A DNA stretch of 64,000 nucleotides from Polyangium mundeleinium (GTDB lineage: Bacteria; Myxococcota_A; Polyangia; Polyangiales; Polyangiaceae), in assembly GCF_028369105.1 (NCBI RefSeq), contig NZ_JAQNDO010000001.1, positions 1,843,711 to 1,907,710 on the forward strand, given 5' to 3'. Positions 14,919-60,013 of this stretch are shown here, one piece after another (position 1 is the stretch's first letter; every line of letters begins with the position of its first letter). The notes under the pieces are model-generated. The model did no database searches. It was not told the DNA's origin and saw only the letters and a program-made list of their open reading frames with translations. Both the position numbers and the translations under genes were made by a program.

Positions 14919-15053
14919 ATCTAAGCCCTCCTCACTCGTCTCTGCTCGACTCTCTGAGTTTCGCTGAATTAACTCGCGCTGCCTGCGCGACACAAGAGGT
15001 TTGAGCAGCGCGCGTCCTTGCACCCTCTCGGTGCCTCCCCCCTCCCGCGTGTG

Positions 15054-15659
15054 TCAGGGCTCCTCGCCCCGCTCCACCCACGCGGGAAAACGAAGCTTCG
15101 CGTCCAGAGCAAACCCCTTCACGGCCTCGGCCATCCGCCCCGCGCGCTCCCCCCGCGGCAGCCGGGCCCGCAGGCCTTCGAGCGCCCCGAGGAACCGCCC
15201 GAACCGCGGATCGCCGAAGAGCGCTTCCAGGTCCTCGCGGATGCGCCGCGCCACCCCCGGGCTCGTGCCGCCGGTCGCGAACGTCATTGTGAGGCCATGG
15301 GCCCGGGCGACTGCCGGGTTCACGAACGTCGACAGTTCCGGCCTGTCGAGCGTGCACACGAGCCGCCCCTCCGCGACCCCGCGGGCGTGAAATGGCGCTG
15401 CGCGGCCGTCCTCCGAGGTGGCCACGAAGACGATGGCCTTGCCGTCGACGTCGCCCGTTGACGGCTCCCTCCGCTGCAAGTCGAGCCGCCCTTCCGCCGA
15501 AAGCGCCTCGATCGCCGGATCGACCTCCCCCGGCGCGACGACCACGACCCGCGCTCCCGCGGCGAGCAGCCGCTCCACCTTGGGCACGATCTCCGCGCTC
15601 GCCCCGACCACGAGCGCCAGGCGCCCCTGCACATCCACTTCGACCGGCAAGTACCGCAC
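15054..15659 (-). CDS. Precorrin-2 dehydrogenase / sirohydrochlorin ferrochelatase (CysG N-terminal/Met8-like)
   Basis: Rossmann motif LALVVGAS and overall siroheme-synthase N-domain similarity. Confidence 0.7.
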   Translation of the reverse strand: MRYLPVEVDVQGRLALVVGASAEIVPKVERLLAAGARVVVVAPGEVDPAIEALSAEGRLDLQRREPSTGDVDGKAIVFVATSEDGRAAPFHARGVAEGRLVCTLDRPELSTFVNPAVARAHGLTMTFATGGTSPGVARRIREDLEALFGDPRFGRFLGALEGLRARLPRGERAGRMAEAVKGFALDAKLRFPAWVERGEEP

Positions 15660-15787
15660 GAATTCCGTTTACCACAAGTCCTTGTTGTAGATGCTTTGTA
15701 CAATGTTTGGTAATGTTGTACAAAATGTAACTTGACACGGGGGCTGGGAATCCATCAGTCTTTGTTCAATGTTGACGTGACGTTGCG
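15660..15787. promoter_or_regulatory. AT-rich divergent intergenic control region with two TTGTACAA palindromes, TGTT repeats and TTGACA/TTGAC boxes
   Basis: The sequence is ~45% GC in a 70% GC genome. Palindromes were read from the sequence. Confidence 0.4.
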
Positions 15788-18103
15788 ATGTTTGTCGAGT
15801 GTTGTGCGCGGCGACGATCGGCGCGTGGGGCGCCGGCGAGAGCACGGAGGTCGGTCGTGGAGATGAGCGTGACGATGCCGGCGGCGGGGATGGCAGGGAC
15901 GCCCGAACGGATCCCGGGCGCCGCGTTCCGAGCTGCGGCGGCCCTGCACCTGCAACGAAACACGCACCTCTCACGCGAAGCCCTCGCGCGGGACCTGCGC
16001 GATCGGCTCGCGCGGCGCGGGATTCGCTACCACCTGCGCACGCTGAAGCGGCAGCTCTCGGGGGCGGTCGCGACGGTGCCGCCCGAGGTCGACCGCGCGC
16101 TGCGAGAGGCGATCGCCGAGGTGGGAGGCGAGGACGCGATCGCCGCAGTCGAGCGTGCCCTCGTCGAGGCCGGGCTCGCGGGCGCGTCCTCGGCCACGGC
16201 GCCCACGTACATCGTCTGCGAGCGGATGCTGCCGCTCGCCCAGCTCTGGCTCTACCTGCACCCCGAGCGATCGAAGCGTGCGCTCGCTTTTCGCCTGCGC
16301 GAGGAGCTCGAGCGGAGCGGGATCCGCCTCAACGTCGACTCGCTCCAGAGCATCCTCGCCGGTAAGCAGAGGCTCGTGCGGCGCGAGATCCAGGACGCGC
16401 TCTTCGCGCTCCTGCGCCACGATGGCGTGACGTCGTCGGCCGACGCCGAGGCGCGCATCGACGCGATGTCGCGCGAGATCCTCGGCGCGCAGGAGGGCCG
16501 GGTCTTCGAGAGCGCGCGCCGGATCCACGAGCTCGCGAAGGCGTGGAAGGTCGAGCACAAGGAGCCGTCGTCACGCAGGCTCGCGCTCTTGCTCAAGGAG
16601 CGGCTCGCCGAGCGAGGGGTCGTGATCGGCCTGCCGCACGTGCAGAAGCTCGTCGACGGGCGCGCGCGTCGCGTGCGGCATGCAATGTCGAGGGCGATCG
16701 AGTCGATCCTGCGCGGAGACGCGGCGTCTGTGGTGATCGAGGCGCCCGCCACGAAGGACGGGCCGCCCACGGGCGTCGAGCTGGATCTCGCCTGGGTGAA
16801 GGCCGCGCCCATCGCCGAGCTCGCCCGCAAGCACGTGGCCGAGAACCCGGGCATGACGATGCGCAAGCTCGCGATCCGCATTTCGCGTGAGGTCGAGGCA
16901 TTCGGCTACGTCACGAGCCCGAACACGATCCAGCCGATCCTTGGGGGTCATAAGAAGAAGACGCGCGGCTTCATCTACCGCGCCATGCTCCACCTCGACG
17001 GCGTCGCGCCGACGCGCGTGCCCGAGGAGCACGTCTTCGGGGCGCCGCACGGCGAGCGCTCGACCGAGCCTCCACCCTCGGCGGATCCACCGCTCGACGC
17101 CGAGTCACGCCCGCGGAGTCATCTCGCCCCAAAAGCATCGAGCCCTGACGGGGCTGCCCGCAAGCCGCGCCCCGAGGGCCTCGGTTCGAGCCCGGCGGCG
17201 CAGTCCCCGTTCGGGGCGTATCGCGCGGCGATCCGGCGGTATCAGGTGCTCGATCGTGAGACCGAGCTCGATCTCGCCTGGCGGTACCGGCGCGAGGGCG
17301 ATCACGCGGCCGCGAACACGCTCGTGGAGAGCCACCTGCAATTCGTGGTGAAGGTGGCCGCGCAGTACCGAGGTTACGGCATGCAGCTCTCCGACCTCGT
17401 GGAGGAGGGCAACCTCGGCCTGCTCGAAGCGGTCCGACGGTTCGAGCCGTCGCGCAACCTGCGCTTCAAGACGTACGCGGTCTACTGGATCCGCGCCTAT
17501 ATCGTGGACCACTTGCTCCGCGAGTGGAGCATGGTCGGCGGCGGGACGGGGCCGCTCGTGTCGCGCACGTTTTTCCGGCTGCGGCGCGAGCGGGCCAAGC
17601 TCGAAATGCAGCTCGGCGAGGGCGACGCCTCGATCGACACGTTGCTCGCGACCCGGTTCCAGACGACGGAGGACGCGATCCGATCGATGTCGCAGCGGGT
17701 CGCGTCGCGCGACACCTCGCTCGACGCGCAGGCGCGAATGGAGGGCGGGCCGACGCTGCTGGAGATGCTGCGCGATCCGTCGTCGGATCCGGAGCACCTC
17801 ACGGCGAGCGCGGAGCGCGACGCGTTCGTCCGCGGCGTGGTGGGCCGCGTGTGGAAGGCGCTCGACCCACGCGAGCGGCTCATCGTGGAGGAGCGGCTGC
17901 TCTCGGACGACGACGAGGTGAGCCTCGCGGATCTCGGCCGTCGTCTCGGCGTCTCGCGCGAGCGCATGCGGCAGCTCGAAGCGCGTACGAAGTCGAAGCT
18001 TCGCAGCGCGTTCGAGGCCGTCGTGCGCGAAGGCAGCGAGGCTGCCGAGGTGCTGCTCGCGGCGACGCAACCCGAGCCCGAGATCGAAGCGCTCTGCGCT
18101 TGA
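15788..18103 (+). CDS. RpoH-like sigma-70 family factor with ~480-aa N-terminal extension built from four ~55-aa repeats
   Basis: The C-terminal 290 aa carry sigma regions 2-4 (VESHLQFVVKVAAQYRGYG...EEGNLGLLEAVRRFEP). The N-terminus shows four repeats of LAxRLREELERRGIR..L..L.G. Alternative start at 15863. Confidence 0.85.
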   Translation: MFVECCARRRSARGAPARARRSVVEMSVTMPAAGMAGTPERIPGAAFRAAAALHLQRNTHLSREALARDLRDRLARRGIRYHLRTLKRQLSGAVATVPPEVDRALREAIAEVGGEDAIAAVERALVEAGLAGASSATAPTYIVCERMLPLAQLWLYLHPERSKRALAFRLREELERSGIRLNVDSLQSILAGKQRLVRREIQDALFALLRHDGVTSSADAEARIDAMSREILGAQEGRVFESARRIHELAKAWKVEHKEPSSRRLALLLKERLAERGVVIGLPHVQKLVDGRARRVRHAMSRAIESILRGDAASVVIEAPATKDGPPTGVELDLAWVKAAPIAELARKHVAENPGMTMRKLAIRISREVEAFGYVTSPNTIQPILGGHKKKTRGFIYRAMLHLDGVAPTRVPEEHVFGAPHGERSTEPPPSADPPLDAESRPRSHLAPKASSPDGAARKPRPEGLGSSPAAQSPFGAYRAAIRRYQVLDRETELDLAWRYRREGDHAAANTLVESHLQFVVKVAAQYRGYGMQLSDLVEEGNLGLLEAVRRFEPSRNLRFKTYAVYWIRAYIVDHLLREWSMVGGGTGPLVSRTFFRLRRERAKLEMQLGEGDASIDTLLATRFQTTEDAIRSMSQRVASRDTSLDAQARMEGGPTLLEMLRDPSSDPEHLTASAERDAFVRGVVGRVWKALDPRERLIVEERLLSDDDEVSLADLGRRLGVSRERMRQLEARTKSKLRSAFEAVVREGSEAAEVLLAATQPEPEIEALCA

Positions 18104-20434: not shown

Positions 20435-22372
20435 TCACTTGACCTTGGGGATGTACTGCGGGAGGACGAAGTACACGAGCTTGATCCCGTTCTTGCCGCC
20501 GAGGACCTGCCCGTCAGGCGTACGTACGCGGATCAAGGCGCGCATCACGAGCAAGGTCGCGGGCTTGATCGTGTTGTTCACGGCGTGCACGCGGAAGCTC
20601 ACGGGCGCGTCGCCCTGCAGGCCGAAGAACGTGGTCTCCGTGCGGCTCGCGTAGGGCAGGGGAGAGGCCGCGCTCTCGAGCGTCTCGATCTTCGTGATGA
20701 GCGTGCTCGCGTCGAACGGCGCCATCCCCTGATCGACCGGCGGGTTCTGGTATGCGAGGTCCGGCACGCCGTCGCCCGTGCAATCGATGCCGCCGTCGCA
20801 CGCGTAGTTCTCGCGCGCCGTGGTCACGTCGTGCAGGCCCGCGTCCGCGAGCCGGCCGAGCAGGCGCACGACCTCCTGCGACACCGAGCCGCTGCCGACG
20901 TCCGTCTTCGGCACGAGCGGGTGGTCTTTCCCGCCAAACGCGGGGTCGTGGTAGAGGCTGCCCGTCTGCGTGGCGAGGTCCGTGAGGTCGGCCCGCGCCG
21001 CGCCCGGGCTGCCCGTCGCGACGGGCACGCCGACGACCTTCGCGTTGATGTTGTTCAGCGCGGTCACGGCCTCGGCGTACGTCTTCACCGTCCCGCCGAC
21101 CTTCGCCCCGTCGTACTGGTGCGTGACGTTCGGCCCGTTGTGGAACGCGGCGTCCGTGATGAGCACGAAGATCGGCAGCGACTCGGGCCGGAAGCAGGGC
21201 GCGCCGATGCCGCCGGCGAGCGGACAGGTGTACTGCGGGTAGTTCCAGATCCCGCCGATCGTGAGCGCGTAGTTGTTCGGGTTCGTCGCGGCGAGCCAGA
21301 GCGCTTGGGATGTCCCCTCGGGCGCGTCACCGCCGCCCCCCGCCGTGAGCGTGCCGAGGATCTGCTTCGTCGCGATCGGCGCCGTGTACTTCTGCCCGTC
21401 GAACACCGGCGGCGCGAGGTCCCCGGCGATCGTTTGAGCACCAACCTGGAAGCGATACCGATAGAGCGCGTCCCCGTCCTGCCCGTACGGCAGCCACGGC
21501 ACGTCGCGCACCTCGCCCACGCCGATCCACGCGTCGCCGATCGCCGGGATCGGCGGGGTCGCCGTGGGATCGCCGTTCAGGATCGCCGGGATGATCTCCG
21601 TGTCGATCGACGCCTTCAGGTTGTCGATCGCGGGCTGCATCGAAGCCGTCGTGTCGATCAGGAAGTAGATGTCGGCCTTCGTGACGCCGGTCGAGAACGT
21701 AAAATCCTTCGTCTGCTCGCCGCCCTGGTACGGCAGGACGAAGTAGAGCCCCGCATCCACAGGAACCGAGCCCTTCTCCGTCGGGCTCGATCCAGCCGCG
21801 AGCTCGACGAGATCGATGACGCCGTCGTCGTCGCAATCGACGCGCACGCGGCAGCCCTTCGTGCCGTCCGCGTCGTACGTCGTCTCTTGCGTGTCCGACA
21901 CGCCGTCGTTGTCGCTGTCGAGATCGCGCACGTCCGGATCGCCGTCGCCGTCCGAGTCCGCGAGCGGATCGCAGCTATCGTCACGCGTTTGTCCGGGCTC
22001 GCCGTTCAGGAGGAAGGGGTTTGCCGCTTCGTCCGCGTCGAGCACGCCATCGCCGTCGCTGTCGTTGTCGAGCGCATCGGGCGTACCGTCGCCGTCCGTG
22101 TCCTTGTCTGGGCCGAGCTCGAGGAAATCGGCGATGAGGTCCTTGTCCTTGTCCGTCGGATCGCCGCACGTCCCGCCGGAGTCGAGGAACAGCGTGCCTC
22201 CCTCACCGCCCGCGCCCATGCCGGACGAGGACGAGTTGCCATCACCGCTCGCGCCAGCGCCCGATCCGCCGGGATTGATCCCGGAGTCGGGCGAGCAGGC
22301 CAGCGGGACCGAGGCGGCCGCCACGAGGAACGAGAGCCCGAGGCCAAACGAGCGCAAGCGATTCTGCTTCAT
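20435..22372 (-). CDS. Lipoprotein with thrombospondin type-3 Ca-binding (DxDxDGxxD) repeats and vWA-like domain
   Basis: Lipobox PLACS. Multiple DTDGDGTPDALDND / DSDGDGDPD repeats are followed by a vWA-like segment with IDTTASM (DxSxS-type). Confidence 0.7.
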   Translation of the reverse strand: MKQNRLRSFGLGLSFLVAAASVPLACSPDSGINPGGSGAGASGDGNSSSSGMGAGGEGGTLFLDSGGTCGDPTDKDKDLIADFLELGPDKDTDGDGTPDALDNDSDGDGVLDADEAANPFLLNGEPGQTRDDSCDPLADSDGDGDPDVRDLDSDNDGVSDTQETTYDADGTKGCRVRVDCDDDGVIDLVELAAGSSPTEKGSVPVDAGLYFVLPYQGGEQTKDFTFSTGVTKADIYFLIDTTASMQPAIDNLKASIDTEIIPAILNGDPTATPPIPAIGDAWIGVGEVRDVPWLPYGQDGDALYRYRFQVGAQTIAGDLAPPVFDGQKYTAPIATKQILGTLTAGGGGDAPEGTSQALWLAATNPNNYALTIGGIWNYPQYTCPLAGGIGAPCFRPESLPIFVLITDAAFHNGPNVTHQYDGAKVGGTVKTYAEAVTALNNINAKVVGVPVATGSPGAARADLTDLATQTGSLYHDPAFGGKDHPLVPKTDVGSGSVSQEVVRLLGRLADAGLHDVTTARENYACDGGIDCTGDGVPDLAYQNPPVDQGMAPFDASTLITKIETLESAASPLPYASRTETTFFGLQGDAPVSFRVHAVNNTIKPATLLVMRALIRVRTPDGQVLGGKNGIKLVYFVLPQYIPKVK

Positions 22373-23379: not shown

Positions 23380-24042
23380 TCAGCGAGGCCCGCGTCGGTT
23401 CGCTTTTTCCTCGTGCCCGCTCGTCCCTGCGCGCGCGGCGAGCACGTGCACCACCTCGCGCAGCGACACGCCACGCGACGCGAGCCCCACGAGCACGTGG
23501 TACACGAGATCCGCGGCCTCGTTCGCGACGCGCGTGTCGTCCTCGCCTTCGATCGCACGGACGAGCTCGTCCGCCTCTTCGCGGATCTTCGCGCCGATCT
23601 TCGCCGGGCCTCCGTCGAGCAGCGACCGCGTGTAGCTCTTCTCCGCGCTCGACGTGCGCCGCGCCTCGATCTCGCGCTCCAGCACGTCGAGGAACGCGGC
23701 TGCATCCACGCCGGACTCCGCGGCGATCCCGCGCTCGTCCACGCGGCGGAAGAAACACGCGGGTTTGCCCGTGTGGCACGTCGGCCCGACCGGATCCACG
23801 AGCAGGAGCAGCGCGTCGGCGTCGCAGTCCGCGACGATCGTCGCGACGGCGAGCGTGTTGCCACTCGTCTCGCCCTTCTCCCAAAGCGCGCCGCGGGATC
23901 GACTGAAGAACGTTGCTCGCCCCGTCTCGATCGTCCGTTCGAGCGACGCGCGGTTCATGTACGCGAGCATGCGCACCTGACCCGTCAGCCTGTCTTGAAC
24001 GATTGCGGGCAAGAGCCCCGCCTCGCCCCAGGCGAGCTCCAC
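23380..24042 (-). CDS. hisIE: Bifunctional phosphoribosyl-AMP cyclohydrolase / phosphoribosyl-ATP pyrophosphatase
   Basis: HisI cyclohydrolase and HisE MazG-like halves are both present. GTG start. Confidence 0.85.
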   Translation of the reverse strand: MELAWGEAGLLPAIVQDRLTGQVRMLAYMNRASLERTIETGRATFFSRSRGALWEKGETSGNTLAVATIVADCDADALLLLVDPVGPTCHTGKPACFFRRVDERGIAAESGVDAAAFLDVLEREIEARRTSSAEKSYTRSLLDGGPAKIGAKIREEADELVRAIEGEDDTRVANEAADLVYHVLVGLASRGVSLREVVHVLAARAGTSGHEEKANRRGPR

Positions 24043-25586
24043 GCTTCAGCTCTCCTCGGACGGGGGCGGCTCCGAGGTCCGCTCTTCCTCCACCGGCTTC
24101 TTCTTCGTCTTCTTCGTCGCGACGGCCTTCGGCGCCTCGTCCGACGCGTCGGCCTTCTGCGCCTTCTTCGCGGCTTCTTCTTCACGCGCGGCGCTTCGTC
24201 CTCATCCTCGTCCGCGTCTGCATCCGCGGCCTTCTTCGTCGCCGCGGCCGGCTCGCCGTCCTCGTCCTCGTCCTCGTCGGCGACGTTGCTCTCGGCCTTC
24301 TTTTCGGCCGCTTCGTCGTCGATGTAGGCAAGCTGCGGGATCGCCATCGCCGCTTCCGGGTGAGCGAGCGCGGCCTGGTGATAGACCGAGAACGCGAAGG
24401 CCGCTGCGACGCCCGTGCTGAGCGCCACGGCTTGTGATGTCGACAGCTCGATCGTCGCCGAGGTCCCGAACGACTCGGGCCGAAGCGCGAGGAAGAGCAC
24501 GACGGCCGGGACGAACGCGAGGATCTGCGACAGGCGCCGCATCGTCGGGTTCTCGACCATCTTCGAGATGCCGACCACGTAGCCGACCGCGAAGAGCGAG
24601 AGCGCGAGCGGCAGGAGGATGTGCTCGGGCAAGGACGGCGGGATCCAGCCGCGCTCGTCGTCCGCGCGCAGCATCTCCAGCAAGAAGCGTCCGACGCCGT
24701 AGGCGAACGTGAAGATCAAAAAGATTTGACCCCGAAACTTCTGATACCGCCGCGAGACCAGGAGCAGCACGAGGAGCGAAACGCCGACGAGCGACTCGTA
24801 GACCTGCGTCGGGTGCACCGGGAGCGATGCCGTCGCGTCGTCCTCGATGAGGTGCTTCTTCACGTGCTGGATCCAGGCCGGCGAGCCGGCAGGCGCGCCG
24901 CTCGGCGTCTCGATCACCGAGGGATCCCAGCGAGGGAACGTGCCGAGCTTCTGCAGCCACGCGGGCGCTGTCTTCGCGAGCGGCTGGCCGAAATCACAGC
25001 CGAACAGGTAGCAGCCGACGCGCGTGATCATGAGGCCCGACGCGAGGCTCGGCACCGCCACGTCCGCCCACGGCAGGAGCGGGATCCCGTGACGCCGCAG
25101 GAACACCAGCGATCCGATGAATCCGCCGAGAAAGCCGCCGTAGGCCACGAGCCCGCCCTTGCGGACGTCGAGCATCGCGCCGAACGACTCGAACTCGTTC
25201 AGGTTCGTAACGATGTACAGGATGCGCGAGCCCACCACCGCGGCCACGGCCGTGACCACGTAGTTGTTCGCCATCAGCTCTTTCGGCAGCCCATCCCGCT
25301 CCGCGAGCCCGAGCGTCAGATACCAGCCCACGACGAGCGACAGGCCGAGCATCACGCCGTAGCTGTAGATGGGCAGCGGGCCGACAGGCACCGTGCTCGC
25401 GCGGAACACGAACGCCGCGGCGCCGAGGGCCACTGTCGCGATGGCAGCGCCGATCGCGAAGGCCCTGTTCTTCGTCACGAACTGGTAGATCGCGACGATC
25501 GCCGCGATCCCCGCGAGCGCGCACAGGACCCAGAGCAGGGGTAGCGTCGTGCGCGGGAGCGGCACGCGGAACAGGATCGGATGCAT
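23985..25586 (-). CDS. lgt: Prolipoprotein diacylglyceryl transferase with Lys/Ala/acidic C-terminal tail (probable frameshift near 24170-24200)
   Basis: Lgt signature core YGFGCDFGQP. As printed, the frame runs into a poly-Arg stretch overlapping hisIE by 58 nt. The alternate frame gives a compositionally consistent KKAQKADASDEAPKAVATKKTKKKPVEEERTSEPPPSEES tail ending at TGA 24046-24048. Confidence 0.85.
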   Translation of the reverse strand: MHPILFRVPLPRTTLPLLWVLCALAGIAAIVAIYQFVTKNRAFAIGAAIATVALGAAAFVFRASTVPVGPLPIYSYGVMLGLSLVVGWYLTLGLAERDGLPKELMANNYVVTAVAAVVGSRILYIVTNLNEFESFGAMLDVRKGGLVAYGGFLGGFIGSLVFLRRHGIPLLPWADVAVPSLASGLMITRVGCYLFGCDFGQPLAKTAPAWLQKLGTFPRWDPSVIETPSGAPAGSPAWIQHVKKHLIEDDATASLPVHPTQVYESLVGVSLLVLLLVSRRYQKFRGQIFLIFTFAYGVGRFLLEMLRADDERGWIPPSLPEHILLPLALSLFAVGYVVGISKMVENPTMRRLSQILAFVPAVVLFLALRPESFGTSATIELSTSQAVALSTGVAAAFAFSVYHQAALAHPEAAMAIPQLAYIDDEAAEKKAESNVADEDEDEDGEPAAATKKAADADADEDEDEAPRVKKKPRRRRRRPTRRTRRRRPSRRRRRRRSRWRKSGPRSRPRPRRAEAWSSPGARRGSCPQSFKTG

Positions 25587-26448: not shown

Positions 26449-28203
26449 ATGGAACACGCCGAGGTCGAACGCGCCCTGGAGGATCTCGACAGCCGACTCG
26501 AACGGCTGCGAGCGCTCTACGAGCAGTACTTCCTCGGCATCGAGAAGCTCGAGCCGCTGGTCCCGCGCAAGGAGCTCGAGCGGCGCATCATGCTCCTGCG
26601 CCGCGAGCAGATCCGGAACACTGCGCTCCGCTTCAAGTTCCAGACGCTGATCCAGCGCTACAACACGTTCCAGCAGTACTGGGGCCGCGTCGCGCGCGAG
26701 ATCGAGAACGGCACCTACCAGCGCGACGTGCTCCGCGCGGCCGCGCGCTTCGGCACGAAGGACGCGCTGACGATCGTCGGCAAGAAGCAAAAAGAGAAGT
26801 ACGCGAAGCTCGCCGCCGCACAGGAAGAGCGACGCGCCCGCATCCGCAAGGAGGCGCTCACGCTCGACGAGGAGGTGCTCGCCGACGAGGATCTCCTGGC
26901 CGACGAGGTCGAGGATGTCGCGGACGAAGAGCTCGCCGACGACGCGCTCGAGTTCACGACCGCGGAGCCGCCGCCGGCAAAGGCCGCGCCGCCGCCGCCC
27001 CCGAAGCCCGCCGCGCCGCCGCCCCCGCCCGCGGCCTCGAAACCGGCCGCGCCGCCGCCCCCGCCTGCGGCCCCGAAACCGGCTGCGCCGCCACCGCCGC
27101 CTTCGAGCCCGGGACGAATCTCCGCGCTGCCTCCGCCGCCGCCCGCGATCGGAAAAGCGCCTCCACCGCCGCCCGCGCCGGGCAAACCTGCCGCGCCGCT
27201 GCCGCCTCCCGCGGGCAAACCCGCCGCGCCGCCGCCGCCTCCCGCGGGCAAACCTGCCGCGCCGCCTGCGCCTTCGCTCGCCGCGAAGGCCCCGCCGCCT
27301 CCGCGCCCGCCGCTCGCCTCGACGCCGCTCGATCGTCCTTCCGCGCCTCCGCCTGCGCCGCCGCCCGAGCCTCCGCCCGCGGCGAAGCCGGCCGAGCCCG
27401 CGCCGCCCGCCAAGCCGGAGCCGACGAAAAAGCCCGAGCCCGTGCCGCTGATGATGATGATGCGCCGGCCCGAGGCGTCGATCGCATCCAAAGCCGCGGA
27501 GCCGAAGCTCGCGGAAACGAAGCCTGCCGAGGCGCCTCCGCCGGCCGACGCGCCGGCCGCGCGACGCCCGCAGGCTTCCTCGCCCGACCTCGGCAAGCGC
27601 CGCGTCGCTGAGCTCGCGGCCCAGGCGAAACAAGGCAAAGCGGGTCTGAGCGGCCCTGCCTCGGCGCGCCCGCTGGACCTCGACCTCGACCTCGACGCAT
27701 CGAAGCAAGGGCCGCCCTCGCGACGCAGGCCTTCGAGCACACGCACGCGGGCCGCCGTCCACGTCCCGACCGTGTCCGATGAGCCCGTGCCGAGCGTGCC
27801 GGCGCCGTCCTCGCGCCGGAAGAGCAGCCGCAGCATACGCGCGGTCGTCGCGCCGCCGCCGCCCGATCCTCCGCCCGAAGCGCCGGCACCTCCTCCGGAT
27901 ACGGACACGCCCGCGCCCGAGGCGCGCCTTCAGCCTGGACCACGCCCCGCGCCAGCGCGACCTCGCCCGTCGCAGGGGTCGTCCGAGGACCTCTCGGACG
28001 CGCGGATCCGTCAGATTTACGCGCAGTACGTCGAGGCCAAGCGCGCCGCGAAGGAGTCGACCGCGGGCGTCACGTACGAGGCGCTCGCCAAGCAGCTCCG
28101 CCAGCAGGCCGAGAAGCTCAAGGCTTCCCACCCCCAAAAAACGGTCGACTACAACGTGGTGATGAAGGACGGCAAACCCACGCTCAAGCCGATCCTTCGC
28201 TAG
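26449..28203 (+). CDS. Proline-rich protein with conserved N- and C-terminal domains
   Basis: A ~130-aa helical N-domain is followed by a ~250-aa linker of KPAAPPPPP repeats and a conserved C-terminal domain (IRQIYAQYVEAKRAAKE...). No TM segment. Confidence 0.65.
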   Translation: MEHAEVERALEDLDSRLERLRALYEQYFLGIEKLEPLVPRKELERRIMLLRREQIRNTALRFKFQTLIQRYNTFQQYWGRVAREIENGTYQRDVLRAAARFGTKDALTIVGKKQKEKYAKLAAAQEERRARIRKEALTLDEEVLADEDLLADEVEDVADEELADDALEFTTAEPPPAKAAPPPPPKPAAPPPPPAASKPAAPPPPPAAPKPAAPPPPPSSPGRISALPPPPPAIGKAPPPPPAPGKPAAPLPPPAGKPAAPPPPPAGKPAAPPAPSLAAKAPPPPRPPLASTPLDRPSAPPPAPPPEPPPAAKPAEPAPPAKPEPTKKPEPVPLMMMMRRPEASIASKAAEPKLAETKPAEAPPPADAPAARRPQASSPDLGKRRVAELAAQAKQGKAGLSGPASARPLDLDLDLDASKQGPPSRRRPSSTRTRAAVHVPTVSDEPVPSVPAPSSRRKSSRSIRAVVAPPPPDPPPEAPAPPPDTDTPAPEARLQPGPRPAPARPRPSQGSSEDLSDARIRQIYAQYVEAKRAAKESTAGVTYEALAKQLRQQAEKLKASHPQKTVDYNVVMKDGKPTLKPILR

Positions 28204-28335
28204 GAGCTCCAAGCAACTTTGCGAGGAGCTCCAAGCATCGGCTCGGGCGCGTCTGATCTCGCGTCCGTCGTGACGGTTTGGTTGGTGGGGGGAAGAAAGA
28301 GCGGGGGAATCGAAGCGGGGGCTGCGCCGAGCTGG

Positions 28336-31081: not shown

Positions 31082-31157
31082 GCTGGCGTAGCTCAACCGG
31101 TAGAGCACCTGCCTTGTAAGCAGGGGGTTAGGGGTTCAAGTCCCCTCGTCAGCTCCA
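31082..31157 (+). tRNA. tRNA-Thr (anticodon TGT)
   Basis: Cloverleaf folds with a 7-bp acceptor stem, anticodon loop CTTGTAA and encoded CCA. Confidence 0.9.
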
Positions 31158-31279
31158 CCGGACGTCAGAGGCGGAAGGCTCGGACGAACGAGATCTAAAA
31201 ATCTCAGGAGACGAACCGACCGAAACAGAGTAGAGAGGGGACCCGCGAGCCCTTGGATCTCGCGAGACGTTGAAAATCT

Positions 31280-31364
<85 letters not shown>

Positions 31365-31450
31365 GAGACGCCGATGAGGCGCCTCGACCCGCGGAGTCGG
31401 ACAGTCGGTACGTAGACGAGGCCGGGGGGACTCCTCCCCGTTCTCTATCT

Positions 31451-31525
31451 GCGGGCGTAGCTCAGTTGGTAGAGCGTCAGCCTTCCAAGCTGAACGTCGC
31501 CGGTTCGAACCCGGTCGCCCGCTCC
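31451..31525 (+). tRNA. tRNA-Gly (anticodon TCC)
   Basis: Acceptor stem GCGGGCG/CGCCCGC and anticodon loop CTTCCAA. Confidence 0.9.
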
Positions 31526-31541
31526 GCCGGACCGGCTCCAT

Positions 31542-31617
31542 GCCCACCTAGCTCAGTTGGTAGAGCACGTCCTTGGTAAGGACGAGGTCGTCGGTTCAAT
31601 CCCGATGGTGGGCTCCA
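31542..31617 (+). tRNA. tRNA-Thr (anticodon GGT)
   Basis: Acceptor stem GCCCACC/GGTGGGC, anticodon loop TTGGTAA, CCA encoded. Confidence 0.9.
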
Positions 31618-31681
31618 GCAAGCGCAAGGAAAGGACAGCGAGCGCGACCGTCTCGGTCGGCAACCGTCAGGAGCAAGAACG

Positions 31682-32872
<1,191 letters not shown>

Positions 32873-32878
32873 CGAGGC

Positions 32879-33079
32879 ATGATGTCGGTGCAGGGCGGCG
32901 GGTCCGGTGGCAGCGGTGGGGCCACGGGAGAACGAGGGACACGCATCCCGATCTCGCTGGCCTGCACCGAGTGTACGGCAAGAAACTACAAGACGACCAA
33001 AGCTCCCGGCGACTACGTGGAACTGAAGAAGTTCTGCAAGCAGTGCAAGAAGCACACGCTGCACCGGGAGACGAAGTAG
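32879..33079 (+). CDS. rpmG: 50S ribosomal protein L33 (C4 zinc type) with Gly-rich N-terminus
   Basis: [19 protein letters not shown]...CKQCKKHT. The start codon is uncertain. Confidence 0.8.
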
Positions 33080-33140
33080 TCAGATCCGAAGTAGACGAAC
33101 TGCTCGGCTCGTGGCATCAGTCCCGGGTCGAGCAGGTTGA

Positions 33141-33216
33141 AGGGGTATAGCTCAGCTGGTAGAGCAGCGGATTCCAAATCCGCAGGTCGGGAGTTCGAGC
33201 CTCTCTGCCCCTGCCC
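33141..33216 (+). tRNA. tRNA-Trp (anticodon CCA)
   Basis: Acceptor stem AGGGGTA/TGCCCCT and anticodon loop TTCCAAA. Confidence 0.9.
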
Positions 33217-33348
33217 ATGACGGCTCCTCCTTTCGCTGCCTGTTCAGCATCAGGTAGGGGCCACACGAAACGCCTCGCTCGGCCTCGCGGAAGCGAGCGG
33301 GCGAGGCGTAGATGTCGGTGACGCTGCTCGAAGCGGGATCCGACACGT

Positions 33349-34023
33349 TTGGGACGAACGGCGATGGCGACACGACGAGAGAAAGACGAGGCACGGAAGG
33401 CCCAGAAAAAGGGCTCTGCGCCGGAGTCTGCCCCGGACTCGGGTGCGGACGCCTCGCTTGCGGTGCGCAAGGGGAGCGATCTCGACGTGTCGCCGAGCGC
33501 GGACGAAGCCGGTGAAGAGCACGACGACGCTGCTGCGGAGGGCCCGGAGGGGCAAGCGCAGGACGAAGGGGCCGGCGAAGACGCCGAGGCCGCGGCGGCG
33601 CGGCCACTCGGGAGCGACCGCTACGTGATGGCGGGGTTCTTCGGAGCGGCGATCCTCGGCGCGTACGTGCTTGGCAAGGCCATCCACGGGATCTGGGGCA
33701 ACCTCTCGAACCGGGACTGGTTCAGCCGTGCGGTGCCTGCAGTCGCGGCAGTCGCGGACGAGGACAAGGCGACGTATGCGACCGTCATCGCGGGCGTCGT
33801 CGCGGTCATCGTCACGCTGCGGACCTATCGTCGTCCCGATGTGCGGGAGTGGACGGACGAGGTCGCTTCGGAGCTGATCAAGGTCAAGTGGCCGACCAAG
33901 AAGGACGTCACGAACTCAACCATGGTGGTCATTGCGGCGAGCGCCGTGGCCACCCTCTATCTCGCGCTGCTCGACCGGTTGTGGTCGTTCGTGACGGGCA
34001 TCGTCTACGGCACTGGGAGCTAG
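33349..34023 (+). CDS. secE: Preprotein translocase SecE with acidic N-terminal extension
   Basis: The C-terminal TM region WPTKKDVTNSTMVVI is SecE-like, and the gene has the conserved position upstream of nusG. Alternative start at 33364. Confidence 0.8.
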   Translation: MGRTAMATRREKDEARKAQKKGSAPESAPDSGADASLAVRKGSDLDVSPSADEAGEEHDDAAAEGPEGQAQDEGAGEDAEAAAARPLGSDRYVMAGFFGAAILGAYVLGKAIHGIWGNLSNRDWFSRAVPAVAAVADEDKATYATVIAGVVAVIVTLRTYRRPDVREWTDEVASELIKVKWPTKKDVTNSTMVVIAASAVATLYLALLDRLWSFVTGIVYGTGS

Positions 34024-34045
34024 AGCCGTTCGGGAGCCACGCGCC

Positions 34046-34576
34046 ATGGCGAAGAAGTGGTACGTCATTCATACCTACTCGGGCTACGAGGCGAAGGTGC
34101 GTGATGCGCTCCAACAGCGCGCGAAGCAGCACGGCCTCGAGGACAAGATTGGCGAGGTCCTGATCCCGAGTGAAACGGTCACGGAGAACCGCCCGGGGGG
34201 CAAGCAACGGGTTCGTCAGAAGCTCAGCTTGCCTGGCTACATCTTCGCCGAAATGGAGATGAGCGAGACGGTGTGGCACCTCGTGAAGGACACACCGAAG
34301 GTGACGGGCTTCATCGGCAACCAGACGCCGCAAGAGGTCCCGGCCCCGCAGATCGAGAGTCTGCGTCGAGGCATTGTGGAGGGCGCAGTCAAGCCGAAGC
34401 CCAAGCTCACGTTCGAGGTCGGCGAGGAGGTTCGCGTGCTCGACGGCGCGTTCGCCAACTTCACCGGGACCGTGGACGACGTGAAGATGGATAAGCAGAA
34501 GCTGAAGGTCAAGGTGTCGATCTTCGGCCGTCCGACCAGCGTGGAGCTCGATTTTTCGGCGGTAGAGAAGCGCTGA
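34046..34576 (+). CDS. nusG: Transcription antitermination factor NusG
   Basis: KWYVIHTYSGYE NGN domain and a C-terminal KOW domain. Confidence 0.95.
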   Translation: MAKKWYVIHTYSGYEAKVRDALQQRAKQHGLEDKIGEVLIPSETVTENRPGGKQRVRQKLSLPGYIFAEMEMSETVWHLVKDTPKVTGFIGNQTPQEVPAPQIESLRRGIVEGAVKPKPKLTFEVGEEVRVLDGAFANFTGTVDDVKMDKQKLKVKVSIFGRPTSVELDFSAVEKR

Positions 34577-34631
34577 GCGACGTTCCGGGTCGGAACGAAC
34601 AAGGTAGACGCAGCACAGAACGGGTAAAGCA

Positions 34632-35075
34632 ATGGCGAAGAAGGTCACCGGGTACGTCAAGCTTCAGCTCCCTGCGGGGAAGGCCAACCCCTCGCCGCCG
34701 GTCGGTCCTGCGCTCGGCCAGCACGGCGTGAACATCATGGCGTTCTGCAAGGACTTCAACTCGCGGACCGCCTCGCAGGGCGACATGATCATCCCGGTGG
34801 TGATCACGGTCTATTCGGACCGGTCGTTCACGTTCATCTTGAAGACGCCGCCCGCGTCGGTCCTTCTCAAGAAGGCTGCGGGGCTGGAGACCAAGAAGAA
34901 GCCTGGTTCGGGTTCGAAGGAGCCGAACAAGACGAAGGTCGGCCAGGTGACGCGCAAGCAGCTGCAGGAGCTTGCGCAGATGAAGATGCAGGACATGAAC
35001 ACGACGAACCTCGAGTCGGCGATGCGCAGCATGGCGGGCACGGCCCGCTCGATGGGTATCTCGATCGTCGACTGA
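34632..35075 (+). CDS. rplK: 50S ribosomal protein L11
   Basis: [25 protein letters not shown]. Confidence 0.95.
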
Positions 35076-35246
35076 GTCGTCCACCGCGCGCTCTGCTGCA
35101 TCTCCGTTTGGCGGAGAAGCCGGCAGCGGGCGCGCGGCCGCGTGAAAACGCGGCTCTACAAGAGCACCCCCCCACGTTGGGAGGAGAGCACCACGGTTAA
35201 AAACGGCGCACCGTGGGAGGCGTAAGCCGATAAAACAGGAGGGCAG

Positions 35247-35957
35247 ATGCCGAAAGTCGCCAAGAAACGCGCTGCGGCCCAGGCCATGGTGGACCGCACG
35301 CGCAAGTACACGCTGCAAGAAGCGTGTGCGCTCGTAAAACAGGCCGCATCGGCGAAGTTCGACGAGACCGTCGATATCGCTGTGCGGCTGGGCGTGAACC
35401 CGCGTCACGCGGACCAGATGGTTCGTGGCGCTGTGGTCATGCCGGCCGGAACGGGCCAGTCGGTCCGCGTCCTCGTCTTCGCCAAGGGCGAAAAGGCGAA
35501 GGAAGCGGAAGCGGCGGGCGCCGATTTCGTCGGTGAGGCCGACCTGGTGAACAAGATCCAGGAAGGCTTCATGGACTTCGACCGCGTGATCGCTACGCCC
35601 GACATGATGGGCTTGGTCGGTAAGCTCGGTCGTATCCTCGGTCCGCGAGGCCTCATGCCGAACCCGAAGGTCGGCACCGTCACCGTCGATGTGAAGACGG
35701 CGGTGTCCGAAGCGAAGGCCGGCAAGGTGGAGTACCGAGTCGAGAAGGCGGGCATCGTGCACGCTCGGATCGGCAAGGTCTCCTTCAAGGAGGACGCGCT
35801 CGCCAAGAACGCGGAGGCCTTGATCCAGGCTCTCATCCGCGCGAAGCCGTCGACGGCGAAGGGGATTTATCTCCGGAGCATCACGATGTCTTCGACGATG
35901 GGGCCGGGCGTCCGGATCGACCCTGTGCACCTCAGCGACAAGGGTGAGGAGGGCTGA
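35247..35957 (+). CDS. rplA: 50S ribosomal protein L1
   Basis: L1 family. It is preceded by a 170-nt structured leader that may be an L1 autoregulatory site. Confidence 0.95.
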
Positions 35958-35959
35958 TC

Positions 35960-36496
35960 ATGGAGCGCACGGAGAAAGAGGCTCTGGTCGGCGAGGTCAA
36001 GCAGCGCTTCGATCGCATGACCTCGGCGGTCTTCCTCGACTTCACGGGTCTCAACGTCGCCGTGGTCACGAAGCTGCGCGACGAGTTCCGGAAGGCGGGC
36101 GTCGAGTATCGAGTCGTGAAAAACACGCTCGTTCGTCACGCGATCAAGCATCACGCGTGGTCAAAGAAGCTCGACGATACGCTGGTCGGGATGACCGGGA
36201 TTGCCTGGAGTTACGAAGATCCCAGCGCGGCCGCGAAGGTCGTCAAGGCCTTCCGCAAGGAAAAGGAACACGAGAAGCTGAAGATCAAGGCGGGTCTCAT
36301 CGAGGGTCAGATTCTCGACGCCGAGGGCGTGGAGAATCAGCTCGCGACGATGCCCGGCAAGGACGAGCTCAGGGCGACGCTGCTTGCCACGTTGCAGGCG
36401 CCTCTCCAGCAGTTCTTGCAGCAGCTCAATGCGCCTCTTCAGAACTTCGCGTACCTGTTGAAGGCCAAGGAGGACGCGGCGGGCGGGGCGGGCTGA
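35960..36496 (+). CDS. rplJ: 50S ribosomal protein L10
   Basis: L10 family. It starts 2 nt after the rplA stop, so there is no separate L10 leader. Confidence 0.9.
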   Translation: MERTEKEALVGEVKQRFDRMTSAVFLDFTGLNVAVVTKLRDEFRKAGVEYRVVKNTLVRHAIKHHAWSKKLDDTLVGMTGIAWSYEDPSAAAKVVKAFRKEKEHEKLKIKAGLIEGQILDAEGVENQLATMPGKDELRATLLATLQAPLQQFLQQLNAPLQNFAYLLKAKEDAAGGAG

Positions 36497-36577
36497 GCCC
36501 ACGTTCCGAGTCCGATCGTGGTCGGGGCGATGGGGGAACGGACTTGGTCCGGAGCTCCAAACGCTCGACCAGTGAGA

Positions 36578-36604
36578 AAGGGCATTGCGCCCTTCGGGTT
36601 TTGA
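36578..36604 (+). terminator. Hairpin plus T-run (AAGGGCattgcGCCCTTcgggTTTT) between rplJ and rplL; candidate attenuator
   Basis: Read from the sequence. Confidence 0.4.
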
Positions 36605-36669
36605 TCTACAGACGCGCCCCGGGGTACTCATCCCACCGCGGCGCGCAGACGGTTTGAAGGAGTCTCGTC

Positions 36670-37056
36670 ATGGCTGAGATCACGCGGGAGCAGGTCGTCG
36701 ATTACCTTTCCAACCTGCCGGTCATCCAGATCGCCGAGCTCATCAAGGAGCTCGAGAACAAGTGGGGCGTGAAGGCTGCGCCGGCGGCGGTGGCGGTTGC
36801 TGCTGGCCCGGCGGCTGCGGCCGAGGCGCCGAAGGCCGAGGAGAAGACCGAGTTCGACGTTGTCCTGGCGAACGCCGGTGGCAACAAGATCGCGGTCATC
36901 AAGGCGGTCCGTGAGATCACGGGCCTTGGCCTCAAGGAGGCGAAGGACCTGGTCGAGGGCGCGCCCAAGAACGTGAAGGAAGCGGTCTCCAAGGCCGACG
37001 CCGAGGAGATGAAGAAGAAGCTCGCCGAGGCAGGTGCAACGGTCGAGCTCAAGTAA
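36670..37056 (+). CDS. rplL: 50S ribosomal protein L7/L12
   Basis: [23 protein letters not shown]...[13 protein letters not shown]. Confidence 0.95.
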
Positions 37057-37105
37057 GGATCCGAGCTTCCCGTTCAGGGACAGCGCGATCCGCCATGCGA
37101 CGGCG

Positions 37106-37146
37106 GCAGGGGCGAACGTCCCTGCCGCGCGTCGAGTTTTGTCTTT
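37106..37146 (+). terminator. rplL-rpoB intergenic attenuator-like hairpin (GGCAGGG...CCCTGCC) followed by GAGTTTTGTCTTT
   Basis: Read from the sequence. It is analogous to the known rplL-rpoB attenuator position in other bacteria. Confidence 0.4.
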
Positions 37147-37328
37147 GGGGGGTTTGCTGCTGCGTCTGTCGCGTGATTCGAGCGCGTCTTCCAGGTCGCG
37201 GTAGCGCAGCCGAGTTTGTCCGTCGCCGGGACCTTTGATGGCTGTTTCGTAGCTTCGAGGCTGATGCTCGGTTCGTGGAGCGCGCGGGGATCGAGCCCTG
37301 TGCACCCGTAGGAGCCGGAGGAATATCG

Positions 37329-41456
<4,128 letters not shown>

Positions 41457-41462
41457 TGCCGA

Positions 41463-45794
<4,332 letters not shown>

Positions 45795-55004: not shown

Positions 55005-55904
55005 GTGCGCGTGTTCTTCTGCGATCACGTGGAGGTCCCGCTTCCGCCTGGGCATCGCTTCCCGATGGCGAAGTACGCACGCCTGCGCGAGCGCCTGCTT
55101 TCAGCGCTCCTGCTCGATCCGACGGACCTCCAGCCTTCCACGCCCGCCTCGATCACCGACCTCGCGCGTGTCCACGCGCCGCACTACCTCGAAGGCTTGC
55201 TCTCGGGCACGCTCGACCCCCGCATCTTGCGCGCCATTGGGTTTCCCTGGTCCGACGCCCTCGTGCGCAGGTCGCGCGCCAGCGTCTCGGGCACCCTCTG
55301 CGCCGGCCGCGCGGCCCTGGAAGACGGCATTTCGGGAAACCTCGCCGGCGGCACGCACCACGCCTTCGCGGATCGCGGCGCTGGATTCTGTGTCTTCAAC
55401 GACATCGCCGTTGCCTGCCGCACCTTGCTCGACGCGGGCGACGTCCGCCGTGTGCTCGTCCTCGACCTCGACGTCCACCAGGGCGACGGCACCGCCTCCC
55501 TTTTCGGAAACGAGCCCCGCGTGTATACGGCCTCGATCCACGGCGAAAAGAATTTCCCTTTTCACAAGCAGCAGAGCGACCTCGACCTCGCGCTCCCGGA
55601 CCAGACGGGCGACGACGAATACCTCGCCGCGCTCGAACCTTTTCTCGCCCGCGCCTTCGCCGAATCGAACCCCGATTTGGTTTTTTTCCAGGGCGGCGTG
55701 GACGCCCTCGCGGCGGACAAACTGGGCCGGCTCGGCATGACGGCGGCGGGCATGCGCAGGCGGGACGAGCGTGTCCTCGGCGAGGCGCGCCGCCGCGGCA
55801 TTCCGATCGCGCTCACCCTGGGCGGTGGATATACCGATCCCATCGACGCGACCCTCGCCGCGCACGTCGGGACGTATGCGGTCGCCCGTGAGGTCTTCGG
55901 ATGA
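55005..55904 (+). CDS. Histone deacetylase-family Zn-dependent deacetylase (AcuC/AphA-like)
   Basis: GGTHHAF...GFCVFNDIA...LDLDVHQGDG...GGGY motifs. GTG start with SD AAGGAGAGG. Confidence 0.85.
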   Translation: MRVFFCDHVEVPLPPGHRFPMAKYARLRERLLSALLLDPTDLQPSTPASITDLARVHAPHYLEGLLSGTLDPRILRAIGFPWSDALVRRSRASVSGTLCAGRAALEDGISGNLAGGTHHAFADRGAGFCVFNDIAVACRTLLDAGDVRRVLVLDLDVHQGDGTASLFGNEPRVYTASIHGEKNFPFHKQQSDLDLALPDQTGDDEYLAALEPFLARAFAESNPDLVFFQGGVDALAADKLGRLGMTAAGMRRRDERVLGEARRRGIPIALTLGGGYTDPIDATLAAHVGTYAVAREVFG

Positions 55905-56257
55905 CGCCCGGACGCATCACGCTGCTCCTCCTCGCGACGTTGCTTTCGGCCTGCCGTGGCGGCGAATCGGCCGACGCGACGCCGACACCGCCCGAGACCA
56001 CGCCGTCGGCCGCGCCCTCGCCCTCGCCCTCACCCTCCATGCCGCGCCGCCCGACGATCCGCCATTACCTCGCGCGCACGGCGGAGCGATGCGAGGTGTA
56101 TTCGGTCGACCGGGACGCCGTCTCCCCGGCCACGCGCACCCCGTGCCCGCCGGATTTGCAGATCGGCGAGCGCATTCGTGTCATGGGGAAATCGTGCATG
56201 CGGGAGGGGAGCACCGAACGGACGCAGCCGGTGGTGTGTCCGGGGGCGCTCTTGTAA
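55901..56257 (+). CDS. Small hypothetical lipoprotein
   Basis: Lipobox LLSAC. ATGA overlap with the deacetylase stop. Confidence 0.45.
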   Translation: MTPGRITLLLLATLLSACRGGESADATPTPPETTPSAAPSPSPSPSMPRRPTIRHYLARTAERCEVYSVDRDAVSPATRTPCPPDLQIGERIRVMGKSCMREGSTERTQPVVCPGALL

Positions 56258-56836
56258 GTAGGCGGCGCGGGCCGCCGACGGTGGATGGCGGGGGCTCCCC
56301 GAATCGAATCGTCGAAACGGTCATGTTTCGCGCGTCCGCCTCTTGTTCTGCCGCCGAACGAGCTTCGCCTCCCCTGGGGGCCCGCCGGCTCTCGTCCCCG
56401 AACGCTTCCCGGTTCCCCGGCCGCCCCCTGTTTCGCGGCAAGCTGTGACCGTCGTCGCGTCCGCCTCCTGTTTTGCTCCGTGAGCCTGTCGGCTCGACCT
56501 CCGGACGGGGATTTTTTCGCGAAACAGCCCCGGGCTTGTCTCGCCGGCCGGCCGTTGTTTCCCGCAACCACGCCGGGACGCGGCCGCAATCCATTGTTGT
56601 TTGCGCCTGAAGCGAGGCGGACCCGCGGACCAATCCTGTCCTGTCGCAAAACGAGTCCCGGCCCGCCGCGCACCTCCTTGTTCGGCAGCCGAACAGGACC
56701 CGTCTCCGGAGGGCGGAGCCAGTCGGGGTTGCTTCGAATGAGGTGTTCGGCGTGGCTTGGCTGTATCGTGAAGATGCGAGCGCCTCATGGGCTCGCTGGT
56801 GGATGTCCTTGGGGCTTTGGGCGTGGGAGGGTGCGC
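56258..56836. promoter_or_regulatory. 579-nt noncoding region with five TGTTT(C/G)(C/G)CG boxes, a TTTCGCGAAA palindrome and three ~32-nt direct repeats (CGCGTCCGCCTCYTGTTYTGC...)
   Basis: Boxes at 56324, 56429, 56515, 56556 and 56598. Long repeats at 56331-56363, 56452-56484 and 56667-56697. No convincing ORF. Confidence 0.35.
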
Positions 56837-57358
56837 ATGAAACGGATCGTCATCGGGGTGCTGCTCGTTTCGATCGCTCTGCCTGCGCCTGGGTGCACGG
56901 AGGACAAGTGCAAGAATCCGGCAAAGAGCAGCGACCGGATCAGAAACATCTGGAGGGATGGGGATGCGATCAAGTGCAACGCGGTCGTGACCTGCCCCGG
57001 TCATGGCGGGCGCCCGGACAACAGGTTTGCGCTTCAGGGCCTTGAGGATCCCACCACCATCGACCAGCATCGCGATGACTGGAACGAGGGCCATTGCAAG
57101 CAGAAGGTCTGGGACCAGCCGTGGTGGAACCCCGAGTGCACGGTCGTGGTGTCTCCGGCGATCAGTTGCCTCGATGTGGATGGGGGATCAGGTGCGCCTG
57201 GGCCCACGCCCACGGGAGGGACCCTGGTCACGGTCGGCGTCGGAGCGGGAAGCGGGGACTACTGGATCACCGAGCAGGGGGTGGGTGGCGCGGGGGGCGT
57301 GGGCGGCGCTGGAGGGTTCAGCGAAGAGCCCGGGGAGGCTGGGCACGGCGGAGAGTAA
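56837..57358 (+). CDS. Small lipoprotein with Cys/Trp-rich core and Gly-rich C-terminus
   Basis: MKRIVIGVLLVSIALPAPGC lipobox. SD GGGAGGG. It lies within the conserved ~47-nt leader also found at 60713. Confidence 0.55.
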   Translation: MKRIVIGVLLVSIALPAPGCTEDKCKNPAKSSDRIRNIWRDGDAIKCNAVVTCPGHGGRPDNRFALQGLEDPTTIDQHRDDWNEGHCKQKVWDQPWWNPECTVVVSPAISCLDVDGGSGAPGPTPTGGTLVTVGVGAGSGDYWITEQGVGGAGGVGGAGGFSEEPGEAGHGGE

Positions 57359-57880
57359 TCACCGCTCAGGAACCGCGCCGGACGAGCCTGAAAGTGGCGA
57401 TTGTCCCGTGGCCTCCCGCAACCTGGCGTACCAATCCGTGCCCGTGAGCGCGGGGCAAAGCGACTCCGTCTTGGTACGAAAACAAGCCAGGAATTCCTGC
57501 TGGTCGATGTTCCTCGACTGGTGCTTTTGTTGCAGCGAATCCTGGCAGCGAGTCCCGGCGATATCGGTGTCGCGCCAGAAGCGAGCCCCCTGCATGTCTT
57601 CGCACGAGGCGCAAAAGACCGGGTCAAGCCCCGTGCAAGGCACCTTCTCCGGGCAGAACGACAGGACGCAGCTCGCCAGGCATGCGTCCATGTACTCTTC
57701 GGTGACGACACGACAATCAACGTGCGTGCAGTACCCCTCGGTCAGCTCTGCGAGGTCCTCGCAAATCTCTTCACGGGTTTGGCCCGTGCCCCTGGGCTCC
57801 CCCCGATACGCCCCCAGCCCCACGGTGACCAGCGCGACGGCAGCGACGGCGATGGCGATGTACGATCCGCGGCGTTTCAT
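57359..57880 (-). CDS. Secreted/membrane-anchored Cys-rich protein, paralog 1
   Basis: N-terminal TM/signal IAIAVAAVALVTVGLGAYRGE. 11 Cys. Shared motifs GARFWRD, TRC, CFRTKTE..CPALTGTDW. The ~60-nt conserved upstream leader is duplicated in the paralog. Confidence 0.6.
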   Translation of the reverse strand: MKRRGSYIAIAVAAVALVTVGLGAYRGEPRGTGQTREEICEDLAELTEGYCTHVDCRVVTEEYMDACLASCVLSFCPEKVPCTGLDPVFCASCEDMQGARFWRDTDIAGTRCQDSLQQKHQSRNIDQQEFLACFRTKTESLCPALTGTDWYARLREATGQSPLSGSSGAVPER

Positions 57881-57960
57881 GGCTGTCTCCCCTGGGCCCC
57901 GACGAGCCTACACCAATCCACCGGGAAAGACGAGCATCTTGCCGCGAAGCACGGGAGAGC

Positions 57961-59579: not shown

Positions 59580-59625
59580 CGAGAGACGTTGTGGACCTGT
59601 ATGTCGGAGTGCGGAGGGAGGACCT

Positions 59626-59997: not shown

Positions 59998-60013
59998 AGC
60001 CACGGCGCACCTG

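Follow-up and report, generated by a model that had tools for sequence, protein, structure and literature searches.

The arginine-rich end of Lgt in Polyangium mundeleinium RJM3: a one-base frame break, probably from the sequence consensus

The stretch of Polyangium mundeleinium DNA analysed here in its full length of 64,000 nt (the window; contig NZ_JAQNDO010000001.1, positions 1,843,711 to 1,907,710; 68.5% guanine plus cytosine (GC)) carries the genes lgt and hisIE one behind the other, and raises the question why the open reading frame of lgt runs out into a series of arginines that extends into its neighbour. An earlier note made from the letters of this DNA had suspected that the Lys/Ala/acidic tail of lgt is frameshifted and had taken the alternate frame as the true one, a view on which the coding signal and the orthologous DNA agree. 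Coordinates and translation likewise confirm its description of a poly-Arg printed tail which overlaps hisIE by 58 nt, the printed stop TGA (23987-23985) being located 58 nt inside that gene. Open from 24201 onwards, the alternate (-1) frame encodes ...EEEAAKKAQKADASDEAPKAVATKKTKKKPVEEERTSEPPPSEES up to a stop codon TGA at 24048-24046; a spacer of 3 nt (AGC, 24045-24043) separates this stop from the GTG start of hisIE at 24042, as the note had also described. The deposited lgt lacks one C, most likely because the PacBio (Sequel, HGAP) consensus of P. mundeleinium RJM3 contains a single-base deletion that escaped correction. The features concerned are the following.

25586 to 23985, minus strand: printed open reading frame of lgt, from ATG 25586 to TGA 23987-23985, 533 residues, with the C-terminus ...DEDEDEAPRVKKKPRRRRRRPTRRTRRRRPSRRRRRRRSRWRK...FKTG, also written ...DEDEDEAPRVKKKPRRRRRRPTRRTRRRRPSRRRRRRRSRWRKSGPRSRPRPRRAEAWSSPGARRGSCPQSFKTG.
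24171 to 25586, minus strand: 5' part of lgt in the printed frame, from ATG 25586 to codon CCG 24173-24171, residues 1-472.
24172 to 24173, minus strand: site of the frame break, CC (GG on the plus strand) versus CCC in five of five orthologous DNAs, one base missing.
24046 to 24171, minus strand: true 3' part of lgt in the -1 frame, from GCG 24171-24169 to TGA 24048-24046, 41 residues, AKKAQKADASDEAPKAVATKKTKKKPVEEERTSEPPPSEES.
24049 to 24057, minus strand: the three codons with which the true lgt frame ends ahead of its stop, GAG GAG AGC (EES).
23985 to 24170, minus strand: out-of-frame read-through of the printed open reading frame, 61 codons, Arg-rich tail RRRRRRPTRRTRRRRPSRRRRRRRSRWRKSGPRSRPRPRRAEAWSSPGARRGSCPQSFKTG.
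23380 to 24042, minus strand: hisIE, GTG start at 24042, 220 residues, with PF01502 and PF01503.

The change of frame is apparent from the coding signal of the window itself. Genuine coding frames in this genome have a third-position GC of 0.8-1.0. Calculated over 16 codons at a time, this value amounts to 0.81-1.00 in the printed lgt frame down to about 24190 and then to 0.44, while past the break it rises to 0.94-1.00 in the alternate frame. A four-state phase hidden Markov model applied to the whole window places the switch of the lgt frame at 24173/24174. On the basis of a codon-usage table trained on 8,941 codons from the window, the 41 codons shared by both frames obtain log-odds of -65.6 bits in the printed and +37.5 bits in the alternate frame. 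In the printed frame they include 7 AGA, 6 AGG and 5 CGA, which make up 0.9%, 2.6% and 5.2%, respectively, of the Arg codons in the window's genes. The full printed tail of 61 codons (7 AGA, 7 AGG, 5 CGA) scores -76.3 bits, and 27 of the last 60 residues of the printed Lgt are Arg compared to a median of 2 in 120 Polyangiaceae homologues. The frame change in lgt is far beyond chance.

The position of the break was derived from five orthologous DNAs, namely those of P. jinanense SDU13 (L001), Polyangium sp. 6x1 (L002), a Logan contig (L003), Polyangium sp. 15x6 (L004) and a soil-metagenome contig (L007), the last of which, the nearest relative among the metagenomes, matches the window at 96.0% nucleotide identity across 2,480 nt. 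In the DNA alignments the window reads GAAGAAGAAG-CCGCGAAGA and the orthologues read GAAGAAGAAGCCCGCGAAGA, with AAGCAGAAG ahead of CCC in Polyangium sp. 6x1; written in codons, AAG CC GCG AAG of the window faces AAG CCC GCG AAG in five of five Polyangium DNAs. The missing C falls at lgt codon 472/473, and the CC site is the sole gap in the gene whose length is not a multiple of three, the other gaps in the tail alignment comprising 3, 6, 9 and 30 nt. The earlier note had considered an indel in the GAA/AAG repeat GAAGAAGAAG as a cause. A one-base indel was found, but not inside the repeat: the base is missing from the C-run directly 3' of it, where CCC has become CC.

Restoration of one C results in a 513-residue Lgt that is collinear with its relatives. 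It shares 97.9% identity end to end with the protein of the closest relative (P0158), 96.7% without gaps with that of P. sorediatum (P0155), 95.7% with that of P. fumosum (P0156) and 93.6% with that of Polyangium sp. 6x1 (P0002); the 5' part alone (residues 1-472) is 92-98% identical to Polyangium Lgt proteins. The final 49 residues, ending ...KKPVEEERTSEPPPSEES, are identical to those of P0158, and so are the alternate-frame residues (41/41). The comparison of orthologous tails suggested in the earlier note points in the same direction: a Lys/Ala/acidic tail ending ...EPPPSEES / ...EERTSEPPPSEES, or a near variant of it, is present in nine Polyangium orthologues (P0001-P0004, P0155, P0156, P0158, P0159 and the translation of L001), none of which has a poly-Arg tail. 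The TGA-3 nt-GTG junction between lgt and hisIE is also kept in all five orthologous DNAs (four loci read, L007 by its gene table). Just ahead of this junction, GAGGAG (24057-24052) lies 9 nt upstream of the hisIE GTG, occupies invariant columns in the five-sequence alignment and is probably the Shine-Dalgarno sequence of hisIE, so that part of the constraint on the conserved EES end of Lgt may stem from its role as ribosome-binding site of the following gene. A C-terminus of the form [DE]E[SAGT] is found in 31 of the 120 Lgt homologues.

Alignments to the orthologous DNA reveal no further damage to the alternate frame downstream of the break; the loss must therefore have occurred very recently, unless it is no biological event at all. 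When metagenome contigs were scanned for this site in either form, CC or CCC (GTGAAGAAGAAGCCN{0,1}GCGAAGAAGGCGCAGAAGGCCG), no match was obtained. The exact corrected 513-residue Lgt is absent from the protein collection, and a second assembly of the strain is therefore not available for comparison. Arg-rich Lgt tails elsewhere are confined, among the 120 Polyangiaceae homologues, to P0092 and P0094. The sources of P0094 and P0092 are the contigs of metagenome-assembled genomes GCA_037720395.1 and GCA_024708825.1 (L005 1501-3900, L006 1501-3700), each with the lgt frame broken twice in the tail and with more breaks in hisIE; their Arg-rich stretches are false and constitute assembly errors of the same kind. 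As a separate observation, P0157 (ENA, 1786-nt contig) is an Lgt of the window's type up to ...GEPAAA and then continues with an unrelated hydrophobic tail; this contig is probably chimeric.

How did the base get lost? In high-GC genomes, the errors that persist in long-read consensus sequences such as this one are for the most part single-base indels at short G/C runs, and the lgt break is a single-base indel in a homopolymer (CCC to CC) within an assembly made from long reads only. The RJM3 genome comprises 13,254,631 bp in 2 contigs with an N50 of 13,235,919; for the novel strains of that study, the reads came from PacBio Sequel or Sequel II and the assemblies from HGAP, and the publication names neither Illumina nor short-read polishing (PMC10435759). 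The deletion, its position, the true frame, and the source and sequencing method are shown by the data; that the C was lost from the consensus rather than from the genome of the cell is our inference. As far as the CCC to CC change at 24172-24173, lgt is read correctly. Downstream of it, the frame evolved under selection is the -1 frame, which encodes the conserved Lys/Ala/acidic tail ...PAKKAQKADASDEAPKAVATKKTKKKPVEEERTSEPPPSEES and terminates at a distance of 3 nt from hisIE. AAG/GAA/GCG-rich sequence read out of frame accounts for the 61-residue Arg-rich tail and its 58-nt overlap with hisIE, neither of which is an evolved feature. If the loss did occur in the consensus, the organism produces a normal 513-residue Lgt.

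Several points weigh against a consensus origin. With three bases only, the C-run falls short of the length typical of homopolymer errors in long reads. The break is, moreover, the sole in-gene gap of a length not divisible by three that the window shows against all orthologues in 15.7 kb of aligned DNA, and among the junctions examined, the third-position GC phase scan of the 64 kb left no further frame switch unexplained. A real mutation in RJM3 also retains a minor but appreciable likelihood. Gaps of such lengths against single orthologues were recorded at 15013-15835, 22237-22243, 22407, 23372, 27027-27128 and 28223-28302; according to the map of open reading frames they are intergenic, cancel each other within a few bases or lie inside a Pro-rich low-complexity stretch. 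The abrupt phase switches at 6194/6195 and 54005/54006 proved on manual inspection to be start-stop overlaps of the ordinary TTGA/ATGA kind. A frequency of one break in 64 kb is compatible with a low rate of residual errors and equally with a normal pseudogene rate.

The deletion might be a real, recent strain- or lineage-specific frameshift of P. mundeleinium RJM3, an explanation which we consider possible but rather doubtful. The cell would then contain a 533-residue Lgt with the last 41 conserved residues swapped for 61 Arg-rich ones, and with translation of lgt terminating 58 nt within hisIE, no longer 3 nt ahead of that gene; since the break is located about 150 residues past the catalytic fold, the enzyme would remain functional. 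Short runs commonly lose single bases by spontaneous mutation, and a frameshift would be most tolerable at this place, at a great distance from the PF01790 domain (67-323) and in a tail of low complexity whose length differs among relatives by in-frame indels of 3 to 30 nt. The lack of any other frameshift in the 64 kb examined, by which the assembly is not obviously error-ridden, fits a real event as well. In Mycobacterium tuberculosis, Lgt bears at its C-terminus a large extension of unknown function, which indicates that such tails stand outside the core enzyme (PMC13251419). On the other hand, the tail end ...EERTSEPPPSEES is identical or nearly so in the nine Polyangium orthologues and also encodes the GAGGAG ahead of hisIE, so that loss of this tail end would probably be costly. 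Secondary changes downstream of the break are lacking, the printed tail requires 19 rare AGA/AGG/CGA codons and the RJM3 assembly is based on long reads only. A real deletion would leave a probably still working enzyme minus its conserved C-terminus, and ribosomes would presumably read through the probable ribosome-binding site and start of hisIE, thereby altering any lgt-hisIE translational coupling. An essential lipoprotein-maturation enzyme working with a new 61-residue poly-arginine tail would then serve as a natural experiment on the importance of the conserved tail and of the lgt-hisIE coupling.

Programmed recoding, by a -1 ribosomal frameshift or by transcriptional slippage at AAG AAG AAG CCG, would likewise yield the conserved tail, possibly together with an Arg-rich product, and is in our opinion highly improbable. 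A -1 shift is indeed what the conserved tail requires, the site is preceded by three AAG Lys codons, and the rare codons CGA AGA AGG that follow in the printed frame could stall ribosomes. However, an X XXY YYZ slippery heptamer is absent from 24140-24240, and the site contains no homopolymer of at least 4 bases, whereas a slippage tract would need about 7 or more. The 89 nt downstream have a minimum free energy of -23.9 kcal/mol versus a shuffle mean of -24.4 (z = 0.20) and thus form no stimulatory structure, and a P-site tRNA on CCG or AAG is, as judged from the sequence, unable to re-pair after a -1 slip (GCC, GAA). The split frame is not conserved either, because the tail is in frame (CCC) in five of five orthologous DNAs. 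The slippage-prone site that the earlier note had offered as a second possible cause was consequently abandoned. A phase-variable repeat tract was also considered and rejected, as the (AAG)3 block is equally long in every orthologue, with the indel outside the block. Equally rejected was an independent small gene encoded by the alternate frame, in which no start codon occurs from TGA 24204-24202 to the GTG that encodes the Val of ...KKPVEEE. That the printed frame is correct and evolved, with a genuine poly-Arg tail and hisIE overlap and an incidental similarity in the alternate frame, is virtually out of the question: its 533-residue product was accepted by the NCBI pipeline (MDC0741220.1 / WP_271916440.1), but the codon log-odds are -76 bits, no Polyangium orthologue has this tail, and the alternate frame matches the tail of the closest relative in 41 of 41 residues, which is impossible by chance.

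The printed 533-residue Lgt is on public record for P. mundeleinium under these two accessions, i.e. the annotation pipeline accepted an Arg-rich product, and the exact HisIE protein is public as WP_271916439.1. Exact P. mundeleinium records likewise exist for the products of the three genes downstream of hisIE, for EF-Tu and for the upstream DUF6250-like gene, on the same contig of 13,235,919 bp. The C-terminus given for WP_271916440.1 / MDC0741220.1 is almost certainly wrong, the true product having 513 residues and ending ...KKPVEEERTSEPPPSEES. The main value of the present analysis is the correction of this public protein record. More generally, uncaught frameshifts put false low-complexity Arg-rich tails into protein databases, and polishing is needed for myxobacterial assemblies based on long reads alone. 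Were the deletion real after all, the last 41 residues of a long and poorly understood Lgt extension would be dispensable, and nothing more.

The identity of the two genes was derived from profile and structure matches. Pfam LGT (PF01790) matches residues 67-323 of the lgt product with E=2.9e-46 and 158.2 bits against a gathering cut-off of 24.9, and the solved chain 5AZB_A of Escherichia coli Lgt matches with E=1.3e-07 (query residues 67-312, chain residues 18-252); judged by these matches, the product is a member of the Lgt family (phosphatidylglycerol:prolipoprotein diacylglyceryl transferase). Its catalytic domain (67-323) is followed by further hydrophobic segments and then by the acidic/Lys-rich tail. 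HisIE combines both of its domains in one protein, PF01502 (E=3.8e-32, residues 25-98) and PF01503 (E=1.1e-17, residues 121-204).

Some observations concern other parts of the window. A segment of 6.4 kb (55824-62214; GC 62-72%) is devoid of the third-position GC periodicity of the rest and may be a foreign or fast-evolving island; an rRNA operon was considered for it and discarded, as no Rfam match was obtained. It encodes two small proteins rich in Cys, paralogues of each other, whose N-terminal anchors resemble one another (MKRR.S...AVAAVALV.VGLGAYRGE) (57359-57880, minus strand; inside 57961-58914, minus strand) and a fragment resembling extracytoplasmic function (ECF) sigma factors (58609-59226, plus strand). 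The 91-nt tRNA-Ser(cga) reported by ARAGORN at 17393-17483 (plus strand) is situated inside a long open reading frame with high third-position GC (15788-18103, a sigma-70-family gene) and is probably a false call. At 26449-28203 (plus strand) a protein of 584 residues with a long Pro/Ala-rich centre (APPPPP repeats) is encoded; six frames are open there, with long antisense open reading frames. Its exact product is absent from the protein collection, and the public annotation probably uses another start or gene model. An ordinary conserved cluster extends over 31082-45794 (plus strand), composed of tRNA-Thr, tRNA-Tyr, tRNA-Gly and tRNA-Thr, tuf (31682-32872), tRNA-Trp and short open reading frames which, by their position, are probably secE, nusG, rplK, rplA, rplJ and rplL. 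Candidates for rpoB (37275-41456) and rpoC (41463-45794), named by position and length only, follow.

Comparison with known systems places the Lgt extension first. The window Lgt resembles that of E. coli (5AZB/5AZC) in matching PF01790 and 5AZB_A, but deviates from it by about 65 extra N-terminal and about 190 extra C-terminal residues, the latter forming hydrophobic segments and a charged low-complexity tail; the E. coli protein has 291 residues, compared to 513 in the restored one. Long N- and C-terminal additions are common in Polyangiaceae, and all 120 homologues listed from this family possess such a C-terminal tail. The C-terminal extension of M. tuberculosis Lgt (PMC13251419) is comparable to the Polyangiaceae one as a large extension only, homology not being implied. 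With dnaX-type -1 frameshifting or transcriptional slippage the lgt break shares only the direction of the shift (-1) and the context of Lys codons, while the heptamer, the long homopolymer, the stimulatory structure and the conservation among orthologues of such systems are missing. From the usual consensus indels of long-read assemblies (PacBio continuous long reads (CLR) with HGAP, Nanopore) it differs in the run of 3 bases only, in being the lone such break found in 64 kb and in the fact that the NCBI pipeline raised no flag, so that the extended protein entered RefSeq. It resembles them in the loss of one base from a short G/C run in a genome of 68.5% GC, in a gene intact in all relatives and in an out-of-frame tail of rare codons. 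The frame break is an ordinary single-base indel of this well-known kind and biologically ordinary.

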